Assembly: GCA_013177855.1 (NCBI GenBank)
Contig: JABLYA010000001.1
Location: 1,527,573-1,591,572 of the forward strand
Direction of reading: 5' to 3'
DNA: 64,000 nt
Origin: Ignavibacteria bacterium
GTDB lineage: Bacteria > Bacteroidota > Ignavibacteria > Ch128b
In this document: positions 2,253 to 49,740 of the stretch, in pieces
How positions within the stretch are numbered: the first letter of the stretch is position 1
Layout of the letters: each line of letters begins with the position of its first letter
Translations under genes and position numbers: made by a program
Notes under the pieces: model-generated
What the model saw: only the letters and a program-made list of their open reading frames with translations
What the model was told of the DNA's origin: nothing
Database searches by the model: none

Positions 2253-5200
2253 ATGATGCGGAAATTTGTTTTATTTATACTTTTAATTTTGGTTGAGTAT
2301 ACATTTTCACAGGTACCTTATCAAATTCAACTTTATCGTGATGAACCAAAAGGAAACATCCAGTATCGCCGTGAAGGCGTAATGGATGGTAATCAGATTA
2401 GAACATTGTTCTACAATAATGGTGAAGTTGGTCAGTGGCCCTATCAACCTTCTGGGGAATGGCCCAAAGGCAGTGGACATTCTTACCTTGATGGTGTTTG
2501 TGTATTAATTGCATCAGAAGTTACAGCACCAGGAACTGGACAAAAAATTCATCCATTAGAATCATCTTATCGTGAATGGATGGATAAAGATCCTGTAACT
2601 GGAGAAATCTGGGGACTTGAACCAGTCCCGGGTTATGTAAATCCTTCTTCAACAAAACCTGCAATAAACACAGATCCAAAATCCTGGCCACCGATTTGGC
2701 CTCGTGCTTTAAATCTAACCCCTGAATGGAATGGCTATTGGTATGGTTATTTCGGCCGCGGTGTGATGAATTCTGATTTTGAGACTTTCTTTGTTATGGA
2801 TGACTCGAGAGATAAGGAATTTACTCGTCCACCATATTTATATTTTCCAATTGCATCGGATTCGGATCGTGGTGGACTTGGACTTAGAGTTGAAGTTCGC
2901 GGTTTTCAATGGTCTCATGTTTTAGCTGAAGATATAATTTTCTGGCATTATGATATTGTAAATATTTCTGATTTTGATTATCCAACTACAGTTTTTGGTT
3001 TTTATACTGACTGTGGAGTTGGTGGAACTCAAGATTCAGGTGATGATTGTGCATCGTTCGATTTGAAACTCGACCTGGCTTACTGCTATGACAATGATGG
3101 CTTTGGTGTCCCTGATATGTGGAAAACAGGTATGTATGGTTATGCTTATCTGGAAAGTCCCGGAAATCCTTGGAATGGGATTGATGATGATGAAGACGGT
3201 ATGGTCGATGAGCGAAGAGATGATGGTATTGATAATGATGGTGATTGGATTCCATATTCTGATTTAAATGGAAACGGCAAATGGGATCGAGAAGAAAATG
3301 AACCGCTTAATGATGACCTTGGTAAAGATGGTGTGGGTCCTTGGGATAGACAGTACAATGGACCCGACGAAGGTGAAGGTGATGGGATTCCAACAGACGG
3401 TGAACCTCATTTTGACAAAACTGATAAAGATGAATCAGATCAGATTGGTTTAACTGCTGTTTCAATTTATAGACTTGGCGAAGGTGGAACTGGCGGCGGC
3501 TGGCCCAAAGATGATGAATCAATGTGGCTAAAAATGGTTGCCGGCACTTTTGATACCTCACTGCAAAGATCAAACATTTCAATGGTCTTCGCTTCTGGTC
3601 CATTCCCACTTTATAAAGGACTTAGAGAAAGATTCTCGATGGCTTTAGTTTTTGGTGAAGATTTAAATGACTTAGTATTCAACAAAGAAACTGTACAACA
3701 GATTTACAATGCAAATTATAATTTCTCTAAACCACCACTTAAACCAAAACTGACAGCCGTACCTGGTGATGGTAAAGTATTTCTTTACTGGGATAATGTC
3801 GCCGAAGAATCCCGGGATCCATTCTTAGGTTATGAAGATAATGATCCAAGAAAAGGATATAAAAAAGATTTCGAAGGTTATTTAATTTATCGAAGTCAAG
3901 AACCAGAATTCAACGATATCAAAGTTATTACTGACTCTCGCGGATTGCCAAGATACTGGAAACCAATTGCCCAGTTCGATAAGATTGATGGAATAAAAGG
4001 ACCGGATCCAGTTGGAATTAATGGAGCTCATTTCTGGCGTGGTGATGATACTGGTTTACAATATTCTTATGTAGATACTGATGTTAAAAACGGCGTTACA
4101 TATTATTATGCCTGCGTCTCTTATGATATGGGTGATCCAAATTATGGAACAACTGGACTGCAACCTAGTGAATGCACTAAAATTATAACTGTTGATTATG
4201 CCGGTAATGTTCAATTCGTCGATATCAATTGTGCTGTTGTAACTCCAAATGCACCTGTTGCGGGTTATGTGCCTCCGCAAATTTTAGGTGATACTAAACA
4301 AGTTACCGAAGGAGTTGGTACTGGATTTTTACAATTTCATGTTTTCGATCCTAGAGTAGTTGAAGATGGAACCAAATACGAATTTATATTCAAATCAACC
4401 AATGATTATCCACTTTACAAAACTCTGAAATATGAAATTGTTCGAACTAAAGGCAGTGATGTAGATACAATTCTTACTGTTGATTCATCATATATTGGTG
4501 CTGATAAAGTTAGTCCACCATTCGATGGGTTAGCAGTTACAGTAATAAATGATACGGCAGTCACAATCATTGATTCTCTAACCGGCTGGCTTGTCGGAAA
4601 AAGTAATCTTGTTATGAATGTTTTCCCCGATCAAACACCAATTCGTGGTGTTCCCTGGCCCGCTGATTATGAAATTACATTTTACGATGGACCAGCTGAT
4701 ACCTGTTACATTTCTTCACCACCGCTTTACAGGAGATTCCCTGTAAACTTCAAAGTATGGAATAAAACAGAACAAAAATATTGTAAGATAGCAGTTCAGG
4801 ATAGAGATCAATCTCAATCTCTTTCTCTTGGTGATGTGATTCAAATTCTTGAGTTCAAAGATAAAGTCATCACACCTGCAAATATTCGTTTTGCCTGGAA
4901 TATAACTTACAATTCTCCGTTTAATCCAAATGTTCAACCAGAATATCCGAAAGATGGAGATAAATTTATTATAACCACAAGGAAACCATTTAAAACTGGA
5001 GATAAATTCATAGTTACAACTAAAGCAGCTGCCACAGATAATGCGCTGGCGAAATCTCAACTTTCAAAAATTGATGTAGTGCCGAATCCTTATTTAGGTG
5101 CCGCTGCTTGGGAGAAGAGGAATCTTAATACAACCGGTCGTGGTGAACGAAAAATTGATTTTATAAACCTTCCGAATAAATGCACAATTAGAATCTATAC

Positions 5201-10544: not shown

Positions 10545-10601
10545 AAATTTATTTTGAGCTTGTCGAAGGATGACTTTAACGAAAATGTTTTTAATTCTAT
10601 C

Positions 10602-10634
10602 GCTGTCATACTTCGATGAACTCAGTATGACAGC
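10602..10634. repeat. Palindromic hairpin repeat unit (conserved-loop hairpin family) in GH3-GH5 intergenic region
   Basis: gctgtcatacttcgatgaactcagtatgacagc: 11-bp arms around the CTGAG/CGAAG-type loop in reverse orientation; same unit recurs near 39.68 kb and 48.9 kb; partial unit gagcttgtcgaaggatgac at 10553-10571. Confidence 0.6.
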
Positions 10635-10703
10635 ATAAATTGTCATTCTGAATCTTGATTAAATTAATAACTTCGAACGCTAATAAAAATTTGAGAGGAA
10701 AAA

Positions 10704-38982: not shown

Positions 38983-39521
38983 AAGCGTTATTTATTGTTG
39001 ACCTTCAAAATGATTTTTGCCCGTGGGGAGCTTTACCAACTCCAAAAGGCGATGTAATTATTCCTGTATTGAACAAAATAATGGATAAATTCGATCTTGT
39101 TCTGGCTTCCAAGGATTGGCATCCGGAAGATTCAATTCATTTTCAAAAATGGCCTAAACATTGTGTTCAGAACACGAAAGGTGCAGATTTCCCCGATGGA
39201 TTAAATACTGAAAAAATTAAGAAAGTATTTCTAAAAGGAACTGGCAATAAAGATGATGGTTACTCTGCCTTCGAAGCGACAAACGAAAATCTTGCTGAAT
39301 TTCTGAGAAAGAATAATGTCGATGAGTTATATGTAACTGGTTTAACAGCTGAGTATTGTGTTAAACAGACGGTACTGGATTCATTGAAAAATGGATTTAA
39401 GACTTTTGTTATTAAGGATGGTGTTGAAGGAATCTATCAGAACGAGGGCGATGTTGAAAATGCTTTCAAAGAAATGGAACAAGCTGGAGCAATTCTCATT
39501 ACTTCTAACGATTTGAAATAG
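38979..39521 (+). CDS. pncA: Nicotinamidase/pyrazinamidase (isochorismatase family)
   Basis: LFIVDLQNDFCPWGALP N-terminal motif, catalytic Cys region (LYVTGLTAEYCV). Confidence 0.8.
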   Translation: MKALFIVDLQNDFCPWGALPTPKGDVIIPVLNKIMDKFDLVLASKDWHPEDSIHFQKWPKHCVQNTKGADFPDGLNTEKIKKVFLKGTGNKDDGYSAFEATNENLAEFLRKNNVDELYVTGLTAEYCVKQTVLDSLKNGFKTFVIKDGVEGIYQNEGDVENAFKEMEQAGAILITSNDLK

Positions 39522-39581
39522 ATTAATCACACTCCGACTACTTTATAAAAATCTTTTAATTAAACTGATTTTATTTTTTTT

Positions 39582-40555
39582 GTCAGGCTGAGCTTGTCGA
39601 AGCCTGACGACAATTAAACTTAAAGCATTCTTTAAGGTCATACTTCGTCAAGTCTCAGGATGACCTCAAATTTTCGCTGTCATACTGAGTTCATCGAAGT
39701 ATGACGGCGATTATTGAGAACATTTGAGTTAATATCATCCTTCGTCAAGGCTCAGGTTAACAATTCCTTAAAAAAATCATAATGGGTCGCTCCTATGGAG
39801 CTTAAATATTTTTTGTTGGTTTTGCTCTCTACTACAAATAGGTCGCTTCTACAAAGCTTTTAAAGAATAAAATTTAGTAGGTAAGAAAAATAAAAGTCGC
39901 GTAGTGATGAACGATTTGTAGCAGAATAATTACTGAGCCCGAAACAAATTGAAGTTGCATAGCAACGACCTCTTTGTAGAGAAAATTATGAACAACTAAA
40001 AAGCTAAAGTCGCGTAGCGACGACCTATCGTAGATATAATTATAAACCGCATAAAGAATTAAATCCAAAATGGAAGAAATTATTATAGAGAAAAACAATC
40101 ACAAACAAAAAAATAAAAAAATAAAAACCCCGCAGGGGTTTAATGTGAATAGCCCCCAATCGCATTGGGGGGTAAGTGAGAACAAAAAAACAAAGAACCC
40201 CAAAGGGGTTCAATTATAACAGAAATTGTTTTAAACGATCCTAAAAATTCAATTGCAAATCAAACATTAAAAATATTTTGAACCTCTCATTTAACCCCTT
40301 CAGGGTTGGAATTATCTTTTGGCGATATTTACCGAGTGCAACTCGGGGCTAATCATATTCAACTCCTTCGGAGTTGGTGAAAATCAACCAGAATAAGATA
40401 TTGATTACAATTTCATTAACTGATAAATCCAGAATGGATGAAATTATTATAGAAAGAAGAAGTGCGCATAAGAAAAAATCCTGAAGGTATGACATTCCGT
40501 TCGTCGAGGCTCAGGATTACAATTCTCTGTCAGGCTGAGCTTGTCAAAGCCTGAC
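39582..40555. repeat. Repeat-rich module A: conserved-loop hairpins + GTCGC/TGTAG-type repeats + tetraloop hairpin array
   Basis: Contains gtcaggctgagcttgtcgaagcctgac (39582-39608), gtcatactgagttcatcgaagtatgac (39679-39705), degenerate units, GTCGC..TGTAG modules (39780-40040), core 40061-40456 and a terminal hairpin 40529-40555. Confidence 0.75.
40061..40456. repeat. Core element copy A: array of six GC-stem short-loop hairpins bounded by about 35-bp direct repeats
   Basis: Bounding repeats aaatccaaaatggaagaaattattatagagaaaaa (40061-40095) and aaatccagaatggatgaaattattatagaaag (40425-40456); hairpins at 40126-40140, 40153-40172, 40195-40211, 40293-40309, 40332-40346, 40360-40376. Confidence 0.75.
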
Positions 40556-40748
40556 GACATTAAAACTATAAACATTTTTTAGGATTACATTTTTTAATTC
40601 TGAACGATACTGAAGAAAGGTAATTGTCAGAAAAAAGATGAGTTTAAAAAATAAAAGTAAGAGCTGCCCAGTTTTTTTGTTGATGCTCATTTAAGATAGA
40701 GATATTAAATTTTTTCTCTGGACAGCTCTAATTGAAGAGCAATAATTT

Positions 40749-43700
40749 TTATTTCAAATAGACCATTTTCTTTATTGATTTATAATCTCCAGAAATTAAT
40801 TGGTAGAAATATATTCCACTTGGAATTTTGTACTGAGCAGCATCAAAAATAAAGCTATAGATACCTGCTTCTCTTTCTTCATCAATCAATGTAGAGATTT
40901 CTCTGCCAATCACATCGAACAATTTTAACTGAACTCTGGATTTTTCTTTTAATGCAAACTTAATCTTTGTAACAGGATTAAACGGATTTGGATAATTTTG
41001 ATAAAGTTCAGTTCTATCTGGAATTGTAACAGGTGAAAGTTTTAACAGCTTTATGTTTTTATCCTCGATAACTAATTCATCACCGGGCGTAAGTGTTTGG
41101 CTAATCTCTTGATTAGGCTCGCTTTCAACTTTGACTTTTAATTTTGTTGATTTAATTCTAATTGGATATTCTCCCGAGTTTATGATCAAATAATTTTCCT
41201 TATTAACATTTTCAACAAATCGATTTGAAGAAAATCGAACATCAAAAATTTGAGCTGGTGGAGTTGGTGGCAATTCAAACAAATCATTTTCCAAATTGTC
41301 ACTCAGATAAAGTTTTACGCTTCGATCTTGATTATCTGTAATTATTAATTCACCAGCGTCACTTAATATTTTTTCAAGTGTTGAGAATTTAGACTTTACT
41401 TTCCCCATATTTTGATTAAAAATAATTTTCCCATCTTGAGAAACTTTTATCCAGTAACCTTTGCCTTTTTGAATTGTGCTGGCAACAAAATATCCATTCT
41501 GGTAACCGAAGAAATAAGATTGCAAAATGTCAGGCGGATTCGTTGTAATCGAATTCACTGAAACATCATTTTCAAATCCACCAATTAAATTCCATCCAGC
41601 TTTTACATTAGCAAAAGGATTTTCAATTGGTAAACCGCAAACCGTAACTTGAGTTGAGTTTGGATATTTCAACCAATAACCTTTTCCATTTGAAAGAGTA
41701 TCAACTGTGTAGTAACCGATTGATTGACTAAATGCAAACGCTGATGATGTTGCATTTGGAAAGATATCAGTCTTTGACATATTTGTTCTTGCAACAGGAA
41801 CAGAAACAATATTCCATCCTGAATTTAAAGAAAAGTTAACGCACAACTCAGTTCTAATCGAAAAAGTATTGTCGCTAATATCGAAGACATTTGGATTTTC
41901 AAGAGAAGAAATTTTAATCAAACATTGTTCTGAAGTAGAACCCGTTACTAACCATTCATAAGAACCAGATTGAGCAGCAATGTTTGTTGCAATTAGATTC
42001 CATGTGCTTCCATTATTAGTCGAAATTTCTATTTTCACATTGTTTACATTCGTACTTGTCCACTCAATTAATTTATGTTGATTCACATACCAGATTTCAC
42101 CGCCATTTGGTTTTGTAACTTGAATTGAACTTGCTTGAACAACTACACCACCAGAGAGCAGCGCAACATTACCAAGATTTGACCCAACCAAAATTTCTTT
42201 TGAACCATTATTATCAAGATCAGGGACAACAGCAACTTCTCTTGCCTGAGTATTTCCACCAAATGAATAAAGAGCCAGTTCATTACCATTGCTGCCATTT
42301 ACAATTAGAGCTCCTTGATTTTGTACTGCAAACACAACATCATCGGAGCCGTCTCCATTTAAGTCTGGAATTATATCAACACCCATAGTATTGCCAGTTG
42401 ATTTGTACCATAGAGTATTTCCATTTGCACCATCAACACAAACAGCGCCGCCTGCTAAAATTGAAATTACAACTTCATCAACTCCATCTCCGTTTACATC
42501 TCTTAAGATTTTCATTTGAGTTGGTGCACCGCCGCCGGTTGAAAATGTCCACAGAGGTAAACCAGTTGTTCCTTTCAATCGATAAACTGGGCCCCAGAAA
42601 GCTCCAGCAATTACATCAGGTTTTTGACCTGGAACTGGAAATACTAAAACTTCTTTTGCACCGCCAGTATTCGAACCAACTTGATATGCCCAGATTAAAT
42701 TTCCATTTGCTCCGCTTAATGCCTGAAATTGATAAACTGGTTCACCAACTGTTGCAATGACATCTGGAATTCCATCATTGTTTATATCTGGAATTGCGGT
42801 AACTCCATGAGTAAATCCACCGACAAATCTTTGCCAGATAATTTGTCCATTTGGTCCATTGAAAAGATAAACCGATCTTCTTCCAGCTACTCCGCCTGAT
42901 TGAGTTGCACTTGCAGCTGCTATTACATCTGGAATACCATCGTTATTAAAATCGGTTGTTGCATCGACACCAGTTATATCACCTAAAGCAAAACTATCGG
43001 GATGATCAGTTCCAAATTTCCATAACATTTGACCTGTTTTGCCATTTAAAGCATAAACGGACTCATTTCCACCACCTGTTCCGATTACTACATCATTAAA
43101 GCCATCGCCATTTAAGTCACTTGCGATTGAAAGCGCTTTTTGATAAGAATAATCTCCGGTTGAGCCAATAGAACCTGCACTTGAATTTGAAATGTAAGTA
43201 TTAAAAGACCACAGAGTATCATTCCCGCCTGAAGAATTTCCATTTAATGCTGCAGTCCAATAGTTTTCAGTGCAGACAATTACATCAGATTTGCCATCAC
43301 CGGTTATATCGTTGATAGCTCTAATTCCTTTTATGGTTCTGTATGTGTTTGAAATTGGATGATTGGGCATTGTATGAGTCCATAAAGGTTGAGCAAGTGA
43401 AAGATTCTGAATTTCGCCTGTGCCTGTTAAAAAAATCTTTGCTTCTGGAGCATTTGTAGAATTGTTGATGATTCTTAAAGTATCAGAAATTAATCCTGAA
43501 GATCTTGGATTGAACCACACTCTTACATATTTAAAACTATTAGCAGGTAAATTTAAAGGAAAGATATCTGGTTCAAGATAAAAATCTGGAATTGATGTAT
43601 TCCATGAAAAAATGTTAATTGGTTGATTGCTTAAGTTTTCAATTTTCATCCACCAGAAATTTGTGCTTCCAACTCTTTTGGTTCCAAAATTATAAGACGG

Positions 43701-44885
43701 CGGAACACTAATTACTCCCTGACCATAAATTCCATTTCCAACCAATCTTATCACCTGCGCAGGTCGTGATAAATCATTGTGATAAATATAGAGATGAGAA
43801 CTATCCGAACCGTATGCGATTGGCGAAAAGAAGATTTGAAAGCTCAGATTACCATTTGGTTGAATGATTGCTGGTGTTGTTAGATTAGTTGTAAATCTTG
43901 ATGAGTAGAAAAATCTTAGGCTGTCAATTACGAGATTTGCAGTTCCATTATTAACAATTGTTGCGGTAATCTGTCCTGAATTTCCAAGAACAACATTACC
44001 AAAATCAAAAAATTTTGTTGGGATGTTAATAGATGGACTTCCACCGCCAATTACATATTTAAAGATTTGTCTGCCCGATGATGCACCAACAGGTTCAGCA
44101 AGGAGGTAAAGGTAATTTCCATCCCAAGCAAGTCCTCTTGGATTTTGTCGTTGTCCGGGTGTTTCAGGAAGCGGGAATGAAAAAAGAGTATCTTTTGTAA
44201 ATCTGTTTACAGCATAAATTCTTTCCGGGTCTCCATCAAATCCATCCATTACATAAAATATTGTATCTCCTTTGACTGCAATACCCTGAGGTTGTAAACC
44301 AAAAACTGGAATTGTATCTGTAACCTGACTTGTGTTTATATCAATCCGATAAAGTGCAGCACTTGAATTTGGATAGTAAACTGAAGCCCATATTTGTCCG
44401 TCATAAGCAAGTCCGCCAAGATAAACGCTTGAAGCAGTAGGCCAATTCAATGAATCAAGTATCTGACCATTTTTAGCAATTCTAATAATTCTACATCTTG
44501 CTGTGTATCTTTGAACAAAGTAAAAAACATTTCCATCTGTTGTTAAACCCTGTGATGAGTTCACATGTGAACTGCTAAAGATTACACTATCTCGAATTAT
44601 ACCAAGCGTATCAACTGCATAGAGTTTTGCCCCTAAATTTCCAGTCGAATATGAACTTGAAACCCACAAAAGTCCATCTCGAATTGTTAAACCATATCCA
44701 TAGTTAAAGAAATTGTCGTTGGGCAAATTGATTACCTGGACAAGTGTTTGCCCGTTTAAAATTTTAGTGAGCAACAAATAGATTATTAAAGTTATAATGA
44801 ATGATATTATGAAACTCTTTTTTGGTTTTTGTGGGTTTGTAGTTTTTCTATTAGAAAAAAGCGGCAGGAAATTATCTGATTTCAT
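40749..44885 (-). CDS. Very large secreted FG-GAP/VCBS-repeat beta-propeller protein with T9SS C-terminal domain
   Basis: FG-GAP-like repeats (DLNGDGFNDVVIGTGGG, DINNDGIPDVIATVG, DVNGDGVDEVVISI, DLNGDGSDDVVFAV, DLDNNGSKEILVGS); CTD LYQNYPNPFNPVTKIKFAL...KLFDVIGREI; 1378 aa. Confidence 0.6.
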   Translation of the reverse strand: MKSDNFLPLFSNRKTTNPQKPKKSFIISFIITLIIYLLLTKILNGQTLVQVINLPNDNFFNYGYGLTIRDGLLWVSSSYSTGNLGAKLYAVDTLGIIRDSVIFSSSHVNSSQGLTTDGNVFYFVQRYTARCRIIRIAKNGQILDSLNWPTASSVYLGGLAYDGQIWASVYYPNSSAALYRIDINTSQVTDTIPVFGLQPQGIAVKGDTIFYVMDGFDGDPERIYAVNRFTKDTLFSFPLPETPGQRQNPRGLAWDGNYLYLLAEPVGASSGRQIFKYVIGGGSPSINIPTKFFDFGNVVLGNSGQITATIVNNGTANLVIDSLRFFYSSRFTTNLTTPAIIQPNGNLSFQIFFSPIAYGSDSSHLYIYHNDLSRPAQVIRLVGNGIYGQGVISVPPSYNFGTKRVGSTNFWWMKIENLSNQPINIFSWNTSIPDFYLEPDIFPLNLPANSFKYVRVWFNPRSSGLISDTLRIINNSTNAPEAKIFLTGTGEIQNLSLAQPLWTHTMPNHPISNTYRTIKGIRAINDITGDGKSDVIVCTENYWTAALNGNSSGGNDTLWSFNTYISNSSAGSIGSTGDYSYQKALSIASDLNGDGFNDVVIGTGGGNESVYALNGKTGQMLWKFGTDHPDSFALGDITGVDATTDFNNDGIPDVIAAASATQSGGVAGRRSVYLFNGPNGQIIWQRFVGGFTHGVTAIPDINNDGIPDVIATVGEPVYQFQALSGANGNLIWAYQVGSNTGGAKEVLVFPVPGQKPDVIAGAFWGPVYRLKGTTGLPLWTFSTGGGAPTQMKILRDVNGDGVDEVVISILAGGAVCVDGANGNTLWYKSTGNTMGVDIIPDLNGDGSDDVVFAVQNQGALIVNGSNGNELALYSFGGNTQAREVAVVPDLDNNGSKEILVGSNLGNVALLSGGVVVQASSIQVTKPNGGEIWYVNQHKLIEWTSTNVNNVKIEISTNNGSTWNLIATNIAAQSGSYEWLVTGSTSEQCLIKISSLENPNVFDISDNTFSIRTELCVNFSLNSGWNIVSVPVARTNMSKTDIFPNATSSAFAFSQSIGYYTVDTLSNGKGYWLKYPNSTQVTVCGLPIENPFANVKAGWNLIGGFENDVSVNSITTNPPDILQSYFFGYQNGYFVASTIQKGKGYWIKVSQDGKIIFNQNMGKVKSKFSTLEKILSDAGELIITDNQDRSVKLYLSDNLENDLFELPPTPPAQIFDVRFSSNRFVENVNKENYLIINSGEYPIRIKSTKLKVKVESEPNQEISQTLTPGDELVIEDKNIKLLKLSPVTIPDRTELYQNYPNPFNPVTKIKFALKEKSRVQLKLFDVIGREISTLIDEEREAGIYSFIFDAAQYKIPSGIYFYQLISGDYKSIKKMVYLK

Positions 44886-45137
44886 AAGTCACCTCAATTA
44901 AATGTTATGACCTGGTTCAAATTAATTAATTATTTTTTTAAAATCCTGGAAAAGATTTGAATGAAAATGAGGGTATTTGATTTTCTTTCTCTATAAATCT
45001 TATAAGGGAAGATTATTGTATTAACAGGCTCGAGGTAATTTGAATTTAAATGAAAGTTCTTTATTAAAAGTCTTAATGGATTTGAATTTCAAATAAAAGC
45101 TGACTACTTTTGAATTGTAAACATAAGGGGTTCAAAA

Positions 45138-45317
45138 ATGAAGAATAAAGTTATTTTAATCCTTCTCATTGTCGCCGCTCTAAGTATTGTAATAGGACTA
45201 ATTGGAAAATTTTCCGGCTCTTTTATTGTTTTTGCAAATGCAACTTGGCATATGTTCGCTCAAACCTGTTTATTGGCTGCCATTGCATTTGGGGTCGGTA
45301 AACTCCTGGAGAAATAA
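45138..45317 (+). CDS. Small predicted membrane protein (59 aa, two hydrophobic helices), not in the supplied ORF track
   Basis: ATG at 45138 preceded by aagggg 8 nt upstream; MKNKVILILLIVAALSIVIGLIGKFSGSFIVFANATWHMFAQTCLLAAIAFGVGKLLEK; TAA stop at 45315-45317. Confidence 0.35.
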   Translation: MKNKVILILLIVAALSIVIGLIGKFSGSFIVFANATWHMFAQTCLLAAIAFGVGKLLEK

Positions 45318-46279
45318 AATTTAATTTGTCTAAAAATTTTTCAGATTAATTCTGCTTAAAAAAGTATTAATTCTTCTCTTTCATTAAAATCATTATTAAA
45401 CACAACTCTTGAAAGTTGCATTGGGTGAAGAGCTTTAAATTCGGGGAATTGTAAATCATTAATTTCAAATTGAACCAGGCTTCTGTGCAGCTGGCATCTT
45501 CAAATGTAAAAGTAAATCTATCATAATCATCTGGTTGAGCTGGTGTCCTTTTACAGGTTAAGGTTGTTAGAGCTGTGGTAAACAAAAAATGAAAAATGAA
45601 AATTTTTTTAAAAGACTAAAAATAAATCCTCCTGTGATATAGGAGAAAAATAAGAATTAATAAAATGAAATCCTTTGCTTGTGATTTTGTAAACAAGAAT
45701 TTTAAAGCTGTTTAATATATGCGGGGGGCGGACATTAGAGGACTTACACTGATTATTGTATTTGAGATTTTAATAATCATCTTTTTCGCTAAAAGGCTTA
45801 ATGGGTATTTACTAATCTAAAAACATTTTTCAATTATGTTTTTATGAGATTTATCTATAACAATACTCAGATTAAAAAATATTGGGATATGAATATTTAT
45901 TGAATGAAATTCATAGAATGTAAATGTTATACAAATAGTTGTTCTTTCTAAAAGAGATTTATTTGTTTCCGGGAAAATTGCTTCGCTTAACTTACAATAG
46001 ATTTTATTTTTGAAAATTTTCCGTTAAAAAATTATTGACCTTAAATGATGATGCACATAAAAAATAGTATTCTTAGCTTATAGAAATTTATCTAAGATGG
46101 AAAGTACAGACACAGAACTGTTCAGTTGTTATTTTTCATTTATCTGTTATTTTTTCGGTATGAGTTAAATTATACTCTTTAATATCAAAATTCCATTTAC
46201 ACAAATTTTAAAGACTCTGAGGTTTGCTTAATTTCATTGGACAAATGTAAGATTAAAGTTAAAATTTTTAATCAATTTC

Positions 46280-48454
46280 TTATTTCATCAAAATAAATTT
46301 TTTAGTTTGAACCAAAGAATTGTTTTTCAATTGATAAATATAAACTCCTGTACTTAGATTATATTGATCGGCATTGAATTCAATTTCGTATTCCCCGATT
46401 TGTTTATGTTCATTCACAAGAGTTACAATTTCCTGGCCGAGTAGGTTGTAGATTCTTAAGCTTGTAAATCCAGAGATAGGGATTGAGAATTTAATTTTTG
46501 TTTTTGAATTAAACGGATTAGGATAGTTTTGAAAGAGAATAAATTTTTTTTCAATGTAATTATTATCATAAACATTGGTTGGTAGATTAACGCCACTTAT
46601 ACCATTTTCATTAAAAATTGCGAGACCCCAGTCTTGGCCATAGTCACTGGCAATCCATTTATTATTGAATTTATCAATTTTTATATCCACAATGCTTCGG
46701 TTAGTTGTTTGATCAAATAAAGTAAAATTTGTCCCATCATATTTCAATAATCCATCATCAGTTCCTATCCAGAGATTATTAAATTTATCAACGGTAATAA
46801 CATTAATATAATTATTAGTGAAAGGTGCGTTATTTGAGTTAAATACAATAAATGTTGAGTCATTTATCCATTTTAATAATCCCATTCTTCTTGTACCAAG
46901 CCAGCGTGTACCATATAAATCTTTAACAAAATAAGTAATTTCTTGACTTGGCATTTTAGTATTAGTTGTATCATAGATTTTCCATTCGTTATTGTATAGT
47001 AAAACCAGCCCTTTAAATGTACAAATCCAAATCGAATCGCCGTAAGGAATTACCAACATACCATTATTTGAGGGTAAAGGAGAATTAGATGTGTTAAAAA
47101 AATAATAATTATTTAAGCTATCAACTTTCAAAACTCCACTTCCTACGGGTGCAATTATCCATTTATTTCTTGACTTATCAATGTTCATTCTTGGATATTT
47201 GACAGCAATTAAAGGAGTAGAGTATGAACTAAAAGAATAACCATCAAAACTGATTAACCCTTTTCCAACCATATATAACCAGATAATGTTGTTACTATCA
47301 ATTGCAGATATAAAATGATTTGGATTAACATTAAATGTGTCTGAGATTTTCCAATAATACCAATTAAATCCATCATACTTTATAAGAGCATTATAAGTAT
47401 TATATAAACTGAATGATAACCATACATTTTCGTTCTTGTCGATAATAATGTTGTATACATCCTGTCGTAAATATTGCGAGGTATCAAATCTAATGAACAA
47501 CCATTGATCTGAATCTTTACTTAGATTTCTTGAAATAAACAGAGGTATCTGAAATGGTTTAAAATTATTGTCACCAGTTAAATTAATTGATTGCTTTTGG
47601 ATTTCAGGATTTATCGTGATGGATTTTATGGGCGAAGGATTACTTGACATAAGATTTGTATTTATTGTCCAGACGCGATATTCAACAGTAATTGAATTAT
47701 TTCCCCCATTCCAGGTAATATCATAATCAATGAAATGATTTTCGTTTGTTTGATTTAATTTAAACCAGTTACTGTTATTTTTTCTTCTTTCTATTAAAAA
47801 TCCTGTATAAAATTCTTTACATTCCCAAAAAAGAAAAGGGTGGTTATCATAATTATTAATATTAAGCTCAATAATTTGTGGCGGTTCAAAATATTTTGTG
47901 ACGGGTAAGCCTTGATTTTTTATCTCCCAAACTTTCAATAATGAACCTGCCTTAAATGTGTACCAATTAGTTTTATCGACACTATAATTTAATGTATTTG
48001 TACCAAAATCAAATTTGATAAAAATATCAGGATTATAGCTGTTTGATACACTACCACTCCATCTACAATCCCTTGTGTCCAGATAAAAATAAAGATTGTT
48101 ATTTTTTGAATTAATTATTTTATAAAATCCATATGTGATTACAGGGGAATAACCACTTCTATAAGAAAACCAGCAGTTCCATTTCGATGGATCATTATTA
48201 CTGATCCCAGTAGTTTCTAATTCACTGTTAATTAAACTCGAGTCGTTAGTAATTGAAAAAATAGTGTCAGATGGATTAATCCAGGTAATTCTTTCACTTT
48301 CAAGAAAATATTTAACCTTTTCGTTTTCATCAACACCAAATGTACCTACAAACAAAACGCCTTCAGTAATTTTTTCTTGAGATAATAAATTAAAATAGGA
48401 TATGAATAATAAAAGGAGTGTGAAAAATTTTTTCATATTATATCTCCTAAACAA
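46280..48454 (-). CDS. Secreted beta-propeller (two-component-regulator-propeller-like repeats) protein with T9SS C-terminal domain
   Basis: Repeats of the type NNLWIGTDDGLLKYDGTNFTLF, NKWIASDYG, RWLGTRRMGLLKW; CTD ILFQNYPNPFNSKTKIKFSIP...RIYNLLGQEI; real start may be the internal Met of MKKFFTLLLLF. Confidence 0.55.
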   Translation of the reverse strand: MFRRYNMKKFFTLLLLFISYFNLLSQEKITEGVLFVGTFGVDENEKVKYFLESERITWINPSDTIFSITNDSSLINSELETTGISNNDPSKWNCWFSYRSGYSPVITYGFYKIINSKNNNLYFYLDTRDCRWSGSVSNSYNPDIFIKFDFGTNTLNYSVDKTNWYTFKAGSLLKVWEIKNQGLPVTKYFEPPQIIELNINNYDNHPFLFWECKEFYTGFLIERRKNNSNWFKLNQTNENHFIDYDITWNGGNNSITVEYRVWTINTNLMSSNPSPIKSITINPEIQKQSINLTGDNNFKPFQIPLFISRNLSKDSDQWLFIRFDTSQYLRQDVYNIIIDKNENVWLSFSLYNTYNALIKYDGFNWYYWKISDTFNVNPNHFISAIDSNNIIWLYMVGKGLISFDGYSFSSYSTPLIAVKYPRMNIDKSRNKWIIAPVGSGVLKVDSLNNYYFFNTSNSPLPSNNGMLVIPYGDSIWICTFKGLVLLYNNEWKIYDTTNTKMPSQEITYFVKDLYGTRWLGTRRMGLLKWINDSTFIVFNSNNAPFTNNYINVITVDKFNNLWIGTDDGLLKYDGTNFTLFDQTTNRSIVDIKIDKFNNKWIASDYGQDWGLAIFNENGISGVNLPTNVYDNNYIEKKFILFQNYPNPFNSKTKIKFSIPISGFTSLRIYNLLGQEIVTLVNEHKQIGEYEIEFNADQYNLSTGVYIYQLKNNSLVQTKKFILMK

Positions 48455-48683
48455 AATCCAAACAAATATATTTTATTTTTTTTTAAAAAACAAATAAGCG
48501 TTAAGTATATATGAAAGCGGCTGATATATTTAAAAATGCTTAAATATGTTTTTTGTATTGGTCTTATTGTTACAGCCAATGTTTCTGAAACAAATTAAAT
48601 ATTTTTATTGTCAACAATTTTTAAAAACGTTTGTTTGAATATTTGACAAGCTCTGCCTTAGATTGAGCTTTTAGAAATTAATT

Positions 48684-49740
48684 GCTGTCATACTTCGATG
48701 AACTAAGTACGACAAAGAAGGGAATGTCATCCTGAGCTTGTCGAAGGGAATGTCATCCTGAGCCCCGACGAAGGATGACACAAAAGAATGTTTTAAATTT
48801 CATTGCTGTCAGGATTCGACTGGCTCAGCCTGACAAAGAATTGGCATCCTGAGGTCAGTCGAAGGATGACCTGAAAGAATATTTTATGTTTGATCGCTGT
48901 AATACTTCGATGAACTCAGTATGACAGCGGAATTGTCAACCTTAGCCCCGACGAATATAATGTCATCCCTTCAGGATTTTTTTATGGGTGCTTGTTTTTT
49001 TCTATAATAATTTCATCCATTCTGGATTTAATTTTCAATTAATCAAAAATAAATCAATATCTTTTTCTGATTGATTTACATCAACTCCAAAGGAGTTGAA
49101 TATGATTAACCCCGAGTTGCACTCGGGGAAATATTGTCAAAAGATGTTTCCAACCCTGAAGGGGTTGAATGTGAATTTCAAAATTTTTTGATGTCTGTTC
49201 TGCAATTGAATTTTTAAGATCGTTTAGAACAAATTCTGTTATAATTGAACCCCTTTGGGGTTCTGTGGGTTTTTGTTCTCATTTACCCCCAATCCGATTG
49301 GGGGCTATTCACATTAAACCCCTGCGGGGTTTTTATATTTTTTGTTTTTTATGTGTAAAGGTTTTTTCTATAATAATTTCATCCATTCTGGATTTAATTT
49401 TTATGCGGCACATAATTATTTCTACAGGGAGGTCGTTGCTGCGCAACTTTAATTTTTTTTCGGGCTTAGTAATTTTTTGAATACAAAGAGTCTATCGCAA
49501 CGCGATTACACATTTTTAGTTTTATCATTTTTATTCTGAAAATAGAACAACGCTATTTTATTTCTTTCAAGTTTGTTTTAATTATTTCATTTTTTTATGG
49601 TTTACTTTGAAATAAAAAATCATTTAGATAGATCTTCTTTCTATTGAACTTAAAAAATCTTCCTTGGAAGCGACCTATTTGTAGAGAAAGAACCAAACAA
49701 AAAATATCAAAGCTCTATCGGAGCGACCTATTAACATTAG
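48684..49740. repeat. Repeat-rich module B, inverted relative to module A
   Basis: Conserved-loop hairpins (e.g. gtcatcctgagccccgacgaaggatgac 48752-48779), core 48997-49402 that is the reverse complement of 40061-40456 by eye (hairpin order and loops inverted), then GTCGC/TGTAG-type modules to about 49740. Confidence 0.75.
48997..49402. repeat. Core element copy B (reverse-complement orientation of copy A)
   Basis: Bounding repeats ttttctataataatttcatccattctggatttaatttt at both ends; hairpins 49081-49099, 49109-49127, 49151-49167, 49247-49263, 49286-49304, 49317-49331 are reverse complements of those in copy A, in reversed order. Confidence 0.75.

Follow-up and report, generated by a model that had tools for sequence, protein, structure and literature searches.

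A stretch of 64,000 nucleotides from the genome of an Ignavibacteria bacterium (contig JABLYA010000001.1), here called the window, has a G+C content of 33.7% and encodes many proteins with sorting tails of the type IX secretion system (T9SS). An earlier note, made from the letters of this DNA alone, had pointed to short hairpin repeats dispersed between its genes, which raises the question of what these repeats are and whether a protein recognizes them. The answer that we consider probable is that they are extragenic DNA hairpins resembling repetitive extragenic palindromic (REP) sequences, which carry a TGTC/CGTC tag and form the recognition motif of a stand-alone GIY-YIG nuclease of about 100 amino acids (aa) related to the Ssn and UPF0213 proteins. 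The copies in the window are gene-less; in many other bacteria, the same hairpin brackets the nuclease gene.

A covarying family of extragenic DNA hairpins

The hairpin units of the window follow the consensus (T)GTCA-NN-CTGAG-loop-CGAAG-NN-TGAC(A). Scoring of every position with an nhmmer profile and a covariance model (CM) resulted in 11 full-length units and about five partial or degenerate ones, all of them at four loci (10555-10654, 39582-39761, 40492-40555 and 48687-48965), of which the first and the last are named locus A and locus D; the rest of the 64 kb is devoid of units. The 11 full copies are part of the seed alignment of the CM, and the CM scan of the window returned these seeds plus one partial match, solely at the four loci. 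The core pattern CTGAG-N3-10-CGAAG is present nine times in the window, versus 0.30 matches expected from dinucleotide-preserving shuffles, and none of 100 shuffles reached nine. The family is thus real, and it has units in both orientations at all four loci that the earlier note had named. The segment 39582-39708, to which that note was attached, contains three units (39582-39608, +; 39637-39664, -; 39679-39705, +), followed by a degenerate fourth at 39734-39761 (-). Most copies in the window contain the tag TGTCAT or TGTCAG, and the asymmetric core gives the hairpin a strand preference of about 20 bits in the CM. The individual units and the two larger arrays are given below, with the evidence for each.

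10555-10574, + strand: partial unit reduced to its 3' half (TGAGCTTGTCGAAGGATGAC), forming the left side of a tail-to-tail doublet; nhmmer E=3.7e-4, CM 19.8 bits, doublet alignment
10605-10631, - strand: full unit GTCATACTGAGTTCATCGAAGTATGAC with the stem extended to 11 bp; exact pattern, CM 47.3 bits, ssDNA (single-stranded DNA) fold -10.5 kcal/mol, z -4.85
10642-10654, + strand: 5' unit fragment (GTCATTCTGAATC); weak nhmmer match, sequence read directly
39582-39608, + strand: full unit GTCAGGCTGAGCTTGTCGAAGCCTGAC; pattern, CM 49 bits, fold -8.0 kcal/mol, z -3.45
39637-39664, - strand: full unit with one C.T stem mismatch (GTCATCCT...AGTATGAC); pattern, CM 37.4 bits, fold
39679-39705, + strand: full unit GTCATACTGAGTTCATCGAAGTATGAC with a 12-bp stem; pattern, CM 46.2 bits, fold -9.7 kcal/mol, z -4.82
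39734-39761, - strand: degenerate unit (GTTAACCTGAGCCTTGACGAAGGATGAT), stem mostly gone; CM 34.3 bits, poor fold of -1.9 kcal/mol
40492-40521, - strand: degenerate unit (GTAATCCTGAGCCTCGACGAACGGAATGTC); nhmmer E=0.0028, sequence read directly
40529-40555, + strand: full unit with core variant CAAAG (GTCAGGCTGAGCTTGTCAAAGCCTGAC); CM 43 bits, fold -7.9 kcal/mol
48687-48713, - strand: unit with core variant CTTAG and a G.T pair in the tag; CM 37.4 bits, nhmmer
48726-48746, + strand: truncated unit, 5' part through CGAAG, a tandem half-unit duplication of the next copy; nhmmer E=1.7e-5, repeat families D2 and D14
48752-48779, + strand: full unit GTCATCCTGAGCCCCGACGAAGGATGAC; pattern, CM 43 bits, fold -7.6 kcal/mol, z -4.75
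48808-48834, - strand: unit with core variant CGAAT; CM 44.7 bits, fold z -1.55
48843-48870, + strand: unit with a mutated tag (GGCA); pattern with one mismatch, CM 38.3 bits
48898-48924, - strand: unit with one mismatch in the 3' arm (TTAC); CM 42.4 bits, fold -7.7 kcal/mol, z -4.5
48935-48965, + strand: degenerate unit (GTCAACCTTAGCCCCGACGAATATAATGTCA); nhmmer E=0.12, inverted-repeat pair I13
39582-39761, no strand: array of two tail-to-tail doublets, each hairpin(+)/28-nt AT-rich spacer/hairpin(-), with a period of 97 nt; repeat families D1 and D15, doublet alignment, spacings
48687-48965, no strand: array of about seven units with a period of 91 nt, tail-to-tail gaps of 27-28 nt and head-to-head gaps of 8-12 nt; repeat families D2-D4, doublet alignment, spacings

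As had been claimed, the copies are all intergenic: none of the 16 full or partial units lies in a long open reading frame (ORF). The true repeating unit in the window is a tail-to-tail doublet, formed by a hairpin(+) and a hairpin(-) with 27-30 nt of moderately conserved, AT-rich spacer in between, with a mean column identity of 66% in the doublet alignment. Neighbouring doublets meet head-to-head across gaps of 7-14 nt, and the resulting arrays have periods of 91 and 97 nt and an alternating +/- orientation. Spacer and hairpin together make up a 51-nt stretch that is common to the isolated locus A at 10.5 kb and to three copies in locus D at 48.7 kb. No universal doublet spacing was found across genomes, the 27-30-nt spacing being lineage-specific.

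Tandem duplications of the 5' half unit that end just past TCGA or CGAAG were observed at positions 48720-48772 of the window and at an unrelated metagenomic locus (L129:2880-2950), and they hint at a recurrent breakpoint in the hairpin core.

Full copies of the window fold as ssDNA with free energies of -5 to -10.5 kcal/mol and z-scores down to -4.9. For the intact ones, stems of 8-12 bp, energies of -7.6 to -10.5 kcal/mol and z-scores of about -4.5 to -4.9 were obtained; several copies are visibly decayed. Read from its ends inwards, the hairpin consists of the conserved GTCA/TGAC, two covarying NN pairs, a C-G and a T-A pair, a tandem G.A/A.G mismatch and a G-C pair that closes a loop of either 5 nt (CYTGT type) or 6 nt (CGNAGT type). 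By nearest-neighbour folding, the stem counts 8 bp up to the G.A and the loop 11-12 nt; the smaller loop sizes apply when the G.A/A.G and G-C are counted as pairs. The earlier note had described a conserved loop of 11-14 nt with CTGAG...CGAAG ends. These ends are indeed conserved, but they are mostly stem (CT/AG paired, followed by the tandem G.A), and the true loop is the one of 5-6 nt. The sequence 5'-TGAG/CGAA-3' is the classical DNA context for tandem sheared G.A pairs.

The note had further held that stems differ in sequence and yet stay complementary. In the window, the NN pairs are complementary in nine of the 11 full copies, but not in all of them: in the unit at 39637-39664, for example, TC is placed opposite TA, and further stem or core mismatches are present in several copies. 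Moreover, the window contains only three stem variants (TA, GG and TC), and from the window alone, compensatory evolution and the copying of three subfamilies therefore cannot be told apart. It is other genomes that supply the decisive evidence for covariation.

A pattern scan using one genome per species identified the hairpin in at least 120 genome stretches belonging to at least 15 phyla; by our own estimate, about 50 matches are expected by chance in a collection of that size. The lineages among the matches listed are Bacteroidota, Ignavibacteria, Calditrichota, Zixibacteria, Acidobacteriota, Chloroflexota, Pseudomonadota, Spirochaetota, Planctomycetota, Bacillota, Nitrospinota, Desulfobacterota, Binatia, Vulcanimicrobiota and two groups of the candidate phyla radiation (CPR). 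Both NN positions are Watson-Crick pairs in 128 of the 150 copies among the matches listed (chance, 1 in 16), and hence the family and its stem complementarity extend beyond this locus. When 108 distinct copies from at least 15 phyla were compared, the two NN pairs were paired in 97% and 93% of them, with four to five pair types each. The covariation score of this set is 0.307, versus 0.131 after shuffling (none of 500 shuffles reached the observed value), and at most 0.132 in slid registers. Non-conserved bases outside the motif are often complementary too, in 74% of the 108 copies at the first outer position, falling to about 45%. An independent set, formed by the hairpins that are linked to the gene described in the next section, has an inner helix that is 99.8% paired and five pair types at each NN pair, in an alignment that was fitted to the CM and leans, for that reason, towards structure. 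In the 95 gene-linked copies, tag positions 1-4 are most often G (66), T (80), C (90) and A (85), and in the copies of other genomes the base before GTCA is most commonly T and less often C. Across genomes, 24% of the copies lie within long ORFs versus 86% for the background (p=1.5e-65). Selection on the hairpin structure, which the earlier note had suggested, is therefore supported by strong cross-genome covariation.

Linkage of the hairpins to a stand-alone GIY-YIG gene

When the ORFs of the 120 listed loci were clustered without bias, a protein of about 100 aa was found in eight loci. It is the most recurrent family after ABC ATPases and T9SS tails, and the only recurrent one that is neither a housekeeping nor a surface-protein family. 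Pfam analysis of the partner proteins, which have sizes of 93-125 aa, revealed a stand-alone GIY-YIG domain and nothing else, and an alignment of six of them showed no variation at the catalytic residues of this fold (Tyr, Tyr, Arg, His and Glu). A hairpin abuts the gene in five of the eight loci, usually on both sides.

We then fetched 80 metagenomic loci by alignment of the six partner proteins alone and searched them for hairpins with the CM. A match is present at 150 bp or less from the GIY-YIG ORF in 45 of the 80 loci, and on both sides of it in 31. Of 37 upstream copies, 33 are in + orientation, and of 39 downstream copies, 32 are in - orientation; the flanking hairpins thus mostly form an inverted pair whose tagged ends face outward. 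Near the gene, the density of CM matches is 3.83 per kb, versus 0.154 per kb farther out, which corresponds to a 25-fold difference. A model-free comparison gave a similar picture: upstream and downstream flanks resemble each other in 47 of 73 loci, versus 53 of 362 mismatched pairs, although this alignment contains no orientation information because the units are near-palindromic. A hand-made generalised regular expression detected the hairpin in 42 of the 80 loci, versus 45 with the CM, and so brought no gain in sensitivity.

Many of the GIY-YIG ORFs in these metagenomic loci (L125-L204, e.g. L168, L183, L185, L196 and L148) read into the downstream hairpin, which gives them C-terminal tails such as ...STSSG and ...LRQAQDD. 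Stand-alone hairpins are likely to be a source of spurious small ORFs in annotations.

Single-domain GIY-YIG nucleases with flanking repeats have been described under the name Ssn (CDD cd10448; Chenal et al. 2025, Nat Commun, PMC11893778). The hairpin repeats that flank ssn genes are called NTS in Neisseria (CGTCATTCCCGCGMAVGCGGGAATCYRG) and were generalised as SRM (PMC11893778). Ssn nucleases bind the hairpin and cut just upstream of it, exclusively on ssDNA and on one strand only, and they do not act on double-stranded DNA or RNA; for SsnA, no RNA binding was found (PMC11893778). In N. meningitidis, the Ssn/NTS system limits transformation by repeat-bearing DNA (PMC11893778). NTS(+)-gene-NTS(-) architecture was reproduced in our analyses in contigs L207, L241 and L299 of a viral collection. 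The same collection contains at least 120 matches to the NTS-type pattern versus 14 strict matches of the CTGAG type, which makes a phage origin of the latter unlikely.

The partner proteins of the CTGAG-type hairpins share the signature VYILxCxDxSxYTGxT...YTxxRRPVxLV...KGWSRxKKEALI. On a hidden Markov model (HMM) built for their subfamily, members score 101-149 bits and NTS-flanked proteins 59-75 bits, and for 80 of 80 partner proteins their own HMM beats the NTS-type HMM (median 126 versus 61). The two groups are nevertheless clearly homologous (E down to 7e-16). Among solved structures, the closest are those of UPF0213/COG2827 proteins, namely BH0048 of B. halodurans (PDB 1zg2, E=3e-20) and EF2693 of E. 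faecalis (PDB 1ywl, E=4e-17), and UPF0213 matches the partner in size and single-domain build. For UPF0213 proteins, including YhbQ of E. coli, the partner HMM gives scores about double those of the NTS-type HMM; their 55-70 bits are, however, well under those of true members (at least 101), and unlike the partner genes E. coli yhbQ has no such hairpins nearby. By HMM and identity comparison, the partner is placed in a putative subfamily that is distinct from the NTS-flanked proteins and nearer to UPF0213. The type of hairpin follows the nuclease subfamily: the NTS type goes with one clade and the CTGAG type with the other.

Both types were seen together on a 1.9-Mb contig (L185), where canonical NTS-type hairpins (4060-4140) are located about 1 kb from a partner-type GIY-YIG gene (2948-3312) with weak CTGAG-type flanking matches. 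A single genome can thus contain both hairpin grammars.

Relation to known repeat systems and rival explanations

The Ssn/SRM systems resemble the hairpins studied here in several respects. Both consist of intergenic, multi-copy and directional hairpins of 25-30 nt that start with (C/T)GTCA(T/C), and the window family agrees with the SRM definition in being a hairpin-forming repeat of 20-50 nt and in having the 5' tag HGTCWY. In both, copies are clustered in arrays around particular genes, often those of surface proteins. Also the motif-gene-motif arrangement around a single-domain GIY-YIG gene of about 94-110 aa is shared, in related loci though not in the window. The differences concern the core, which is CTGAG...CGAAG with a tandem G.A mismatch in the window and a perfect GC-rich stem in SRM, and the tag, which is fully paired with the 3' end (TGAC) in the window, whereas SRM has an unpaired ATCYRG tail.

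Another related group is that of the CGTC-tagged REPs, whose tag is often TGTC and which occur in Bacteroidetes, Chlorobi and other phyla; they have no transposase and are not flanked by a REP-associated HUH tyrosine transposase (RAYT), and they include dRS3 of Neisseria and RPE of Rickettsia (Di Nocera, De Gregorio, Rocco 2013, PMC3733652). The window family has their terminal CGTC, often TGTC, tag. It also shares with them the occurrence in dimers and clusters, the lack of a RAYT partner, and the presence in Bacteroidetes, Chlorobi and Spirochaetes, and appears to share a stem of about 8 bp that mostly begins with A-T. The CGTC-tagged REPs are described with a stem of 8-9 bp that opens with complementary A-T and with a loop of 4-5 nt. 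In our cross-genome set, stem position 1 is A-T in 107 of the 108 copies and position 2 is T-A in 60 of them, covarying in the others. Distinct from these REPs, the unpaired CCA-like tail is absent here, since the 3' TGAC(A) pairs with the tag; an internal tandem G.A mismatch is present; the loop has 5-6 nt only if the G.A is counted as stem; and head-to-head as well as tail-to-tail dimers are regular in the window.

With REP elements, bacterial interspersed mosaic elements (BIMEs) and REPINs together with their RAYTs, our hairpins have in common that they are short extragenic palindromes of alternating orientation with an inverted doublet as the apparent unit, that the enzyme gene itself is flanked by repeats, and that the hairpin would be recognised in ssDNA. 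The comparison with REP/RAYT was also drawn by the Ssn authors themselves (PMC11893778). The tag, however, is TGTC instead of GTAG, and the enzyme is a GIY-YIG nuclease instead of an HUH tyrosine transposase. The REP/BIME-like character proposed in the earlier note therefore holds for the alternating arrays and the avoidance of long ORFs, but not for the classical GTAG/RAYT type. IS200/IS605 elements similarly have a compact gene between subterminal imperfect hairpins that are recognised on ssDNA; they differ in enzyme fold, the hairpins here are mostly inverted rather than on the same strand, and no evidence of transposition was found. Searches of a literature library did not result in a paper with the hairpin core sequence, in one combining GIY-YIG with repetitive extragenic palindromic sequences, or in one linking UPF0213 or YhbQ to repeats.

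The kind of system is thus already known, from Ssn/NTS (2025) and from the CGTC-tagged REPs, and what is new is the CTGAG/G.A hairpin type together with a sister nuclease subfamily. The proposal of a DNA-hairpin binding site, one of those in the earlier note, fits well by analogy, as the hairpin brackets a GIY-YIG gene elsewhere and relatives of this nuclease bind hairpins of this kind in ssDNA and cleave them (PMC11893778). By homology to SsnA, the partner would bind the folded hairpin on ssDNA only and on one strand only, and its nick would fall a few bases 5' of the tag; candidate recognition features are the tag itself, the base that precedes CGAAG in the loop, and the conserved tandem G.A. 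In this way, DNA around the repeats might be marked by them for strand-specific cutting at any time when it is in single-stranded form, as in incoming transforming DNA or in replication and repair intermediates, and the repeats may be spread by the same nuclease activity. A gene for the nuclease would presumably be located elsewhere in this genome. The tail-to-tail doublets look like the cassette minus its ORF and may relate to it as REPINs do to RAYT elements.

A broader proposal, which we put forward tentatively, is that the CTGAG...CGAAG hairpin and its UPF0213-like GIY-YIG protein constitute a second, undescribed pan-bacterial nuclease-repeat system parallel to Ssn/NTS, whose enzyme reads the tandem G.A in folded ssDNA and which spreads as hairpin-gene-hairpin, leaving gene-less doublets behind. 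If true, this would account for very widespread "junk" hairpins from Bacteroidota to Chloroflexota and CPR, and would define a new specificity class of site-specific ssDNA nucleases. In any case, common and unannotated intergenic hairpins of bacteria, which often break assemblies and yield spurious small ORFs, are now tied to a protein partner. The 2025 discovery of Ssn is extended by a second hairpin grammar (tandem G.A core, fully paired tag) and by a sister subfamily near the uncharacterised UPF0213/YhbQ proteins; if the biochemistry holds, the range of sequence- and structure-specific ssDNA nucleases would be wider. The system also makes it possible to ask directly whether repeats of this kind are selfish elements or serve the host in controlling ssDNA transactions around genes for surface proteins.

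Several observations weigh against the hairpins of the window being the recognition motif of such a nuclease. A GIY-YIG gene is missing from the 64-kb window and also from a further 6.8 kb of flanking sequence, which was taken from a related strain and is also devoid of hairpins. The published SRM pattern, HGTCWYN(0-2)YYVSBRHN(0-5)WNVSBRGN(0-2)RNCYNB, has no matches in the window and five in the 323 kb of sequence around partner genes, none being a CTGAG-type unit, whereas the NTS control does match; the pattern misses the window family because of the A at the G.A positions and the pairing of the 3' end with the tag. At E<=0.01, 35 of the 80 GIY-YIG loci are without a CM match, although by eye most of them contain CTGAG...CGAAG or TCGAG...CGAGA variants, for example with long loop inserts or, in the case of the TCGAG...CGAGA core, with the tandem G.A retained. 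Four genome loci have flanking copies in direct instead of inverted arrangement. The partner does not belong to the NTS-associated subfamily, having about 35% mean identity and half the score on the reciprocal HMM, and the transfer of biochemical activity to this separate subfamily would thus rest on distant homology. Finally, neither presence/absence polymorphism nor target-site duplication was seen, and the one comparable related strain has identical arrays, so mobility is conjectural.

We consider it unlikely that the hairpins are pre-existing host repeats and mere landing sites for a homing GIY-YIG cassette, whose nuclease would neither create nor use the genome-wide copies. This explanation could draw on GIY-YIG genes that are embedded in larger hairpin arrays (L012, L153), on the flanks of L044, which resemble a duplicated 38-nt hairpin segment, and on the fact that other GIY-YIG enzymes include homing endonucleases. 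Against it, the consistent inverted arrangement upstream and downstream of the gene looks like the ends of an element and not like a split target, the hairpin type follows the nuclease subfamily, and the hairpins that flank the genes of the published Ssn enzymes are bound and cut by these enzymes (PMC11893778). Quite improbable, too, is an element that acts in RNA, i.e. a transcribed stem-loop that serves as terminator, mRNA 3'-end stabiliser or small RNA, the last of which had been among the suggestions of the earlier note. Its covariation would then reflect RNA structure, and covarying stems with a tandem G.A would be stable in RNA as well; several copies lie just downstream of genes, and in some copies of other genomes (L014, L024) extended stems are followed by T-runs. 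The window copies lack a U-tract, though, and have no consistent orientation relative to genes: both orientations are present at one site, so that only half of the copies could be read in a fixed sense, and locus D is upstream of a gene. Rfam gave no matches across the window at gathering thresholds and, at E<=10, only sub-threshold chance matches in 39500-40700. An RNA element would also leave the tight link to a DNA nuclease gene unexplained, and SsnA binds no RNA (PMC11893778). For the small-RNA suggestion, no support was thus found.

Arrays that alternate in orientation like BIMEs, the extragenic position of the copies and imperfect hairpins typical of ssDNA-transposase substrates would all be expected if a RAYT of the IS200/IS605 type had produced and moved the units as classical REP/BIME elements. 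In addition, two hairpin copies in an Ignavibacterium contig have a RAYT-like ORF (L028:3631-3891, E=2.7e-7 to E. coli RayT) at a distance of about 600 nt. This origin is nevertheless very improbable and was rejected: the tag is TGTC/CGTC and not GTAG, no hairpin-flanked RAYT was found in the window or in 204 related loci, where tblastn with E. coli RayT detected nothing in the former and only the weak, non-adjacent L028 in the latter, and no transposase family recurred near the copies in the ORF clustering. The CGTC-tagged REPs are likewise reported not to be flanked by RAYTs (PMC3733652). There remains the explanation that the hairpins are a local artefact, either chance palindromes or part of two duplicated modules of 1 kb, with no family beyond the locus; this we regard as practically negligible. 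Three of the four loci do lie within the two inverted copies of the module, and there are only three stem variants. Chance and purely local duplication are ruled out by the shuffles (0.3 matches versus nine observed), by the copies with complementary stems in at least 120 stretches of many phyla, and by locus A, which lies outside the modules and yet has its 51-nt unit in common with locus D; the family is therefore not restricted to the larger repeat module.

Genomic setting of the repeats in the window

The copies had been described as lying mostly at the 3' ends of genes. Several indeed are directly downstream of genes, but locus A is located between two co-directional genes and locus D 230-500 nt upstream of a gene start. 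The duplicated modules mentioned above are two composite stretches of about 1 kb (39576-40580 and 48680-49740), which are mutual inverted repeats with colinear blocks of 74-89% identity. Three of the four hairpin loci are within these modules, and locus A (10.5 kb) is independent of them. Hairpin arrays occupy the inner end of each module, plus the outer end of the left one. Modules and two arrays bracket an 8-kb segment with the genes for two secreted proteins with T9SS tails, 40749-44885 and 46280-48454, both on the minus strand. This arrangement is paralleled in Neisseria, where NTS-gene-NTS surrounds surface-protein genes; it is a single example, and a parallel only. The two T9SS genes are separated by an AT-rich, almost gene-free gap of 1.4 kb (44886-46279), in which the sole called gene is an ORF for a hydrophobic protein of 59 aa (about 45139-45318).

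The modules contain further repeats. At 40118-40380 and 49080-49335, six short GC-rich stem-loops are separated by AT-rich DNA (AAACCCCGCAGGGGTTT, CCCCCAATCGCATTGGGGGG, GAACCCCAAAGGGGTTC, AACCCCTTCAGGGTTGG, CCGAGTGCAACTCGGGG and CAACTCCTTCGGAGTTG), for which there was no Rfam match above threshold. A third repeat family, TAAATCCAGAATGGATGAAATTATTATAGAAA, is present at 40060-40094 and 40424-40458 on the + strand and at 48996-49035 and 49362-49401 on the - strand; two of its copies, of 40 nt each and 366 nt apart, are 100% identical. A fourth family consists of a 5-bp stem with a triloop followed by GACCTnTTTGTAGA and is located at 39831-39844, 39967-39980, 49421-49434 and 49672-49685. Its four matches compare with 0.37 expected, and it contains GTAG, though not at the hairpin foot.

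The comparable contigs are either identical across the hairpins or end within them. Independent assemblies of the same organism also end inside repeats, namely L122-L124 about 605 nt past icd, near position 49374 of the window, and L342 at about position 10629. A JGI contig (L343) is identical to the window through the hairpin array and unrelated to it from position 39955 onwards, a change that suggests either a rearrangement or a chimeric join within the module.

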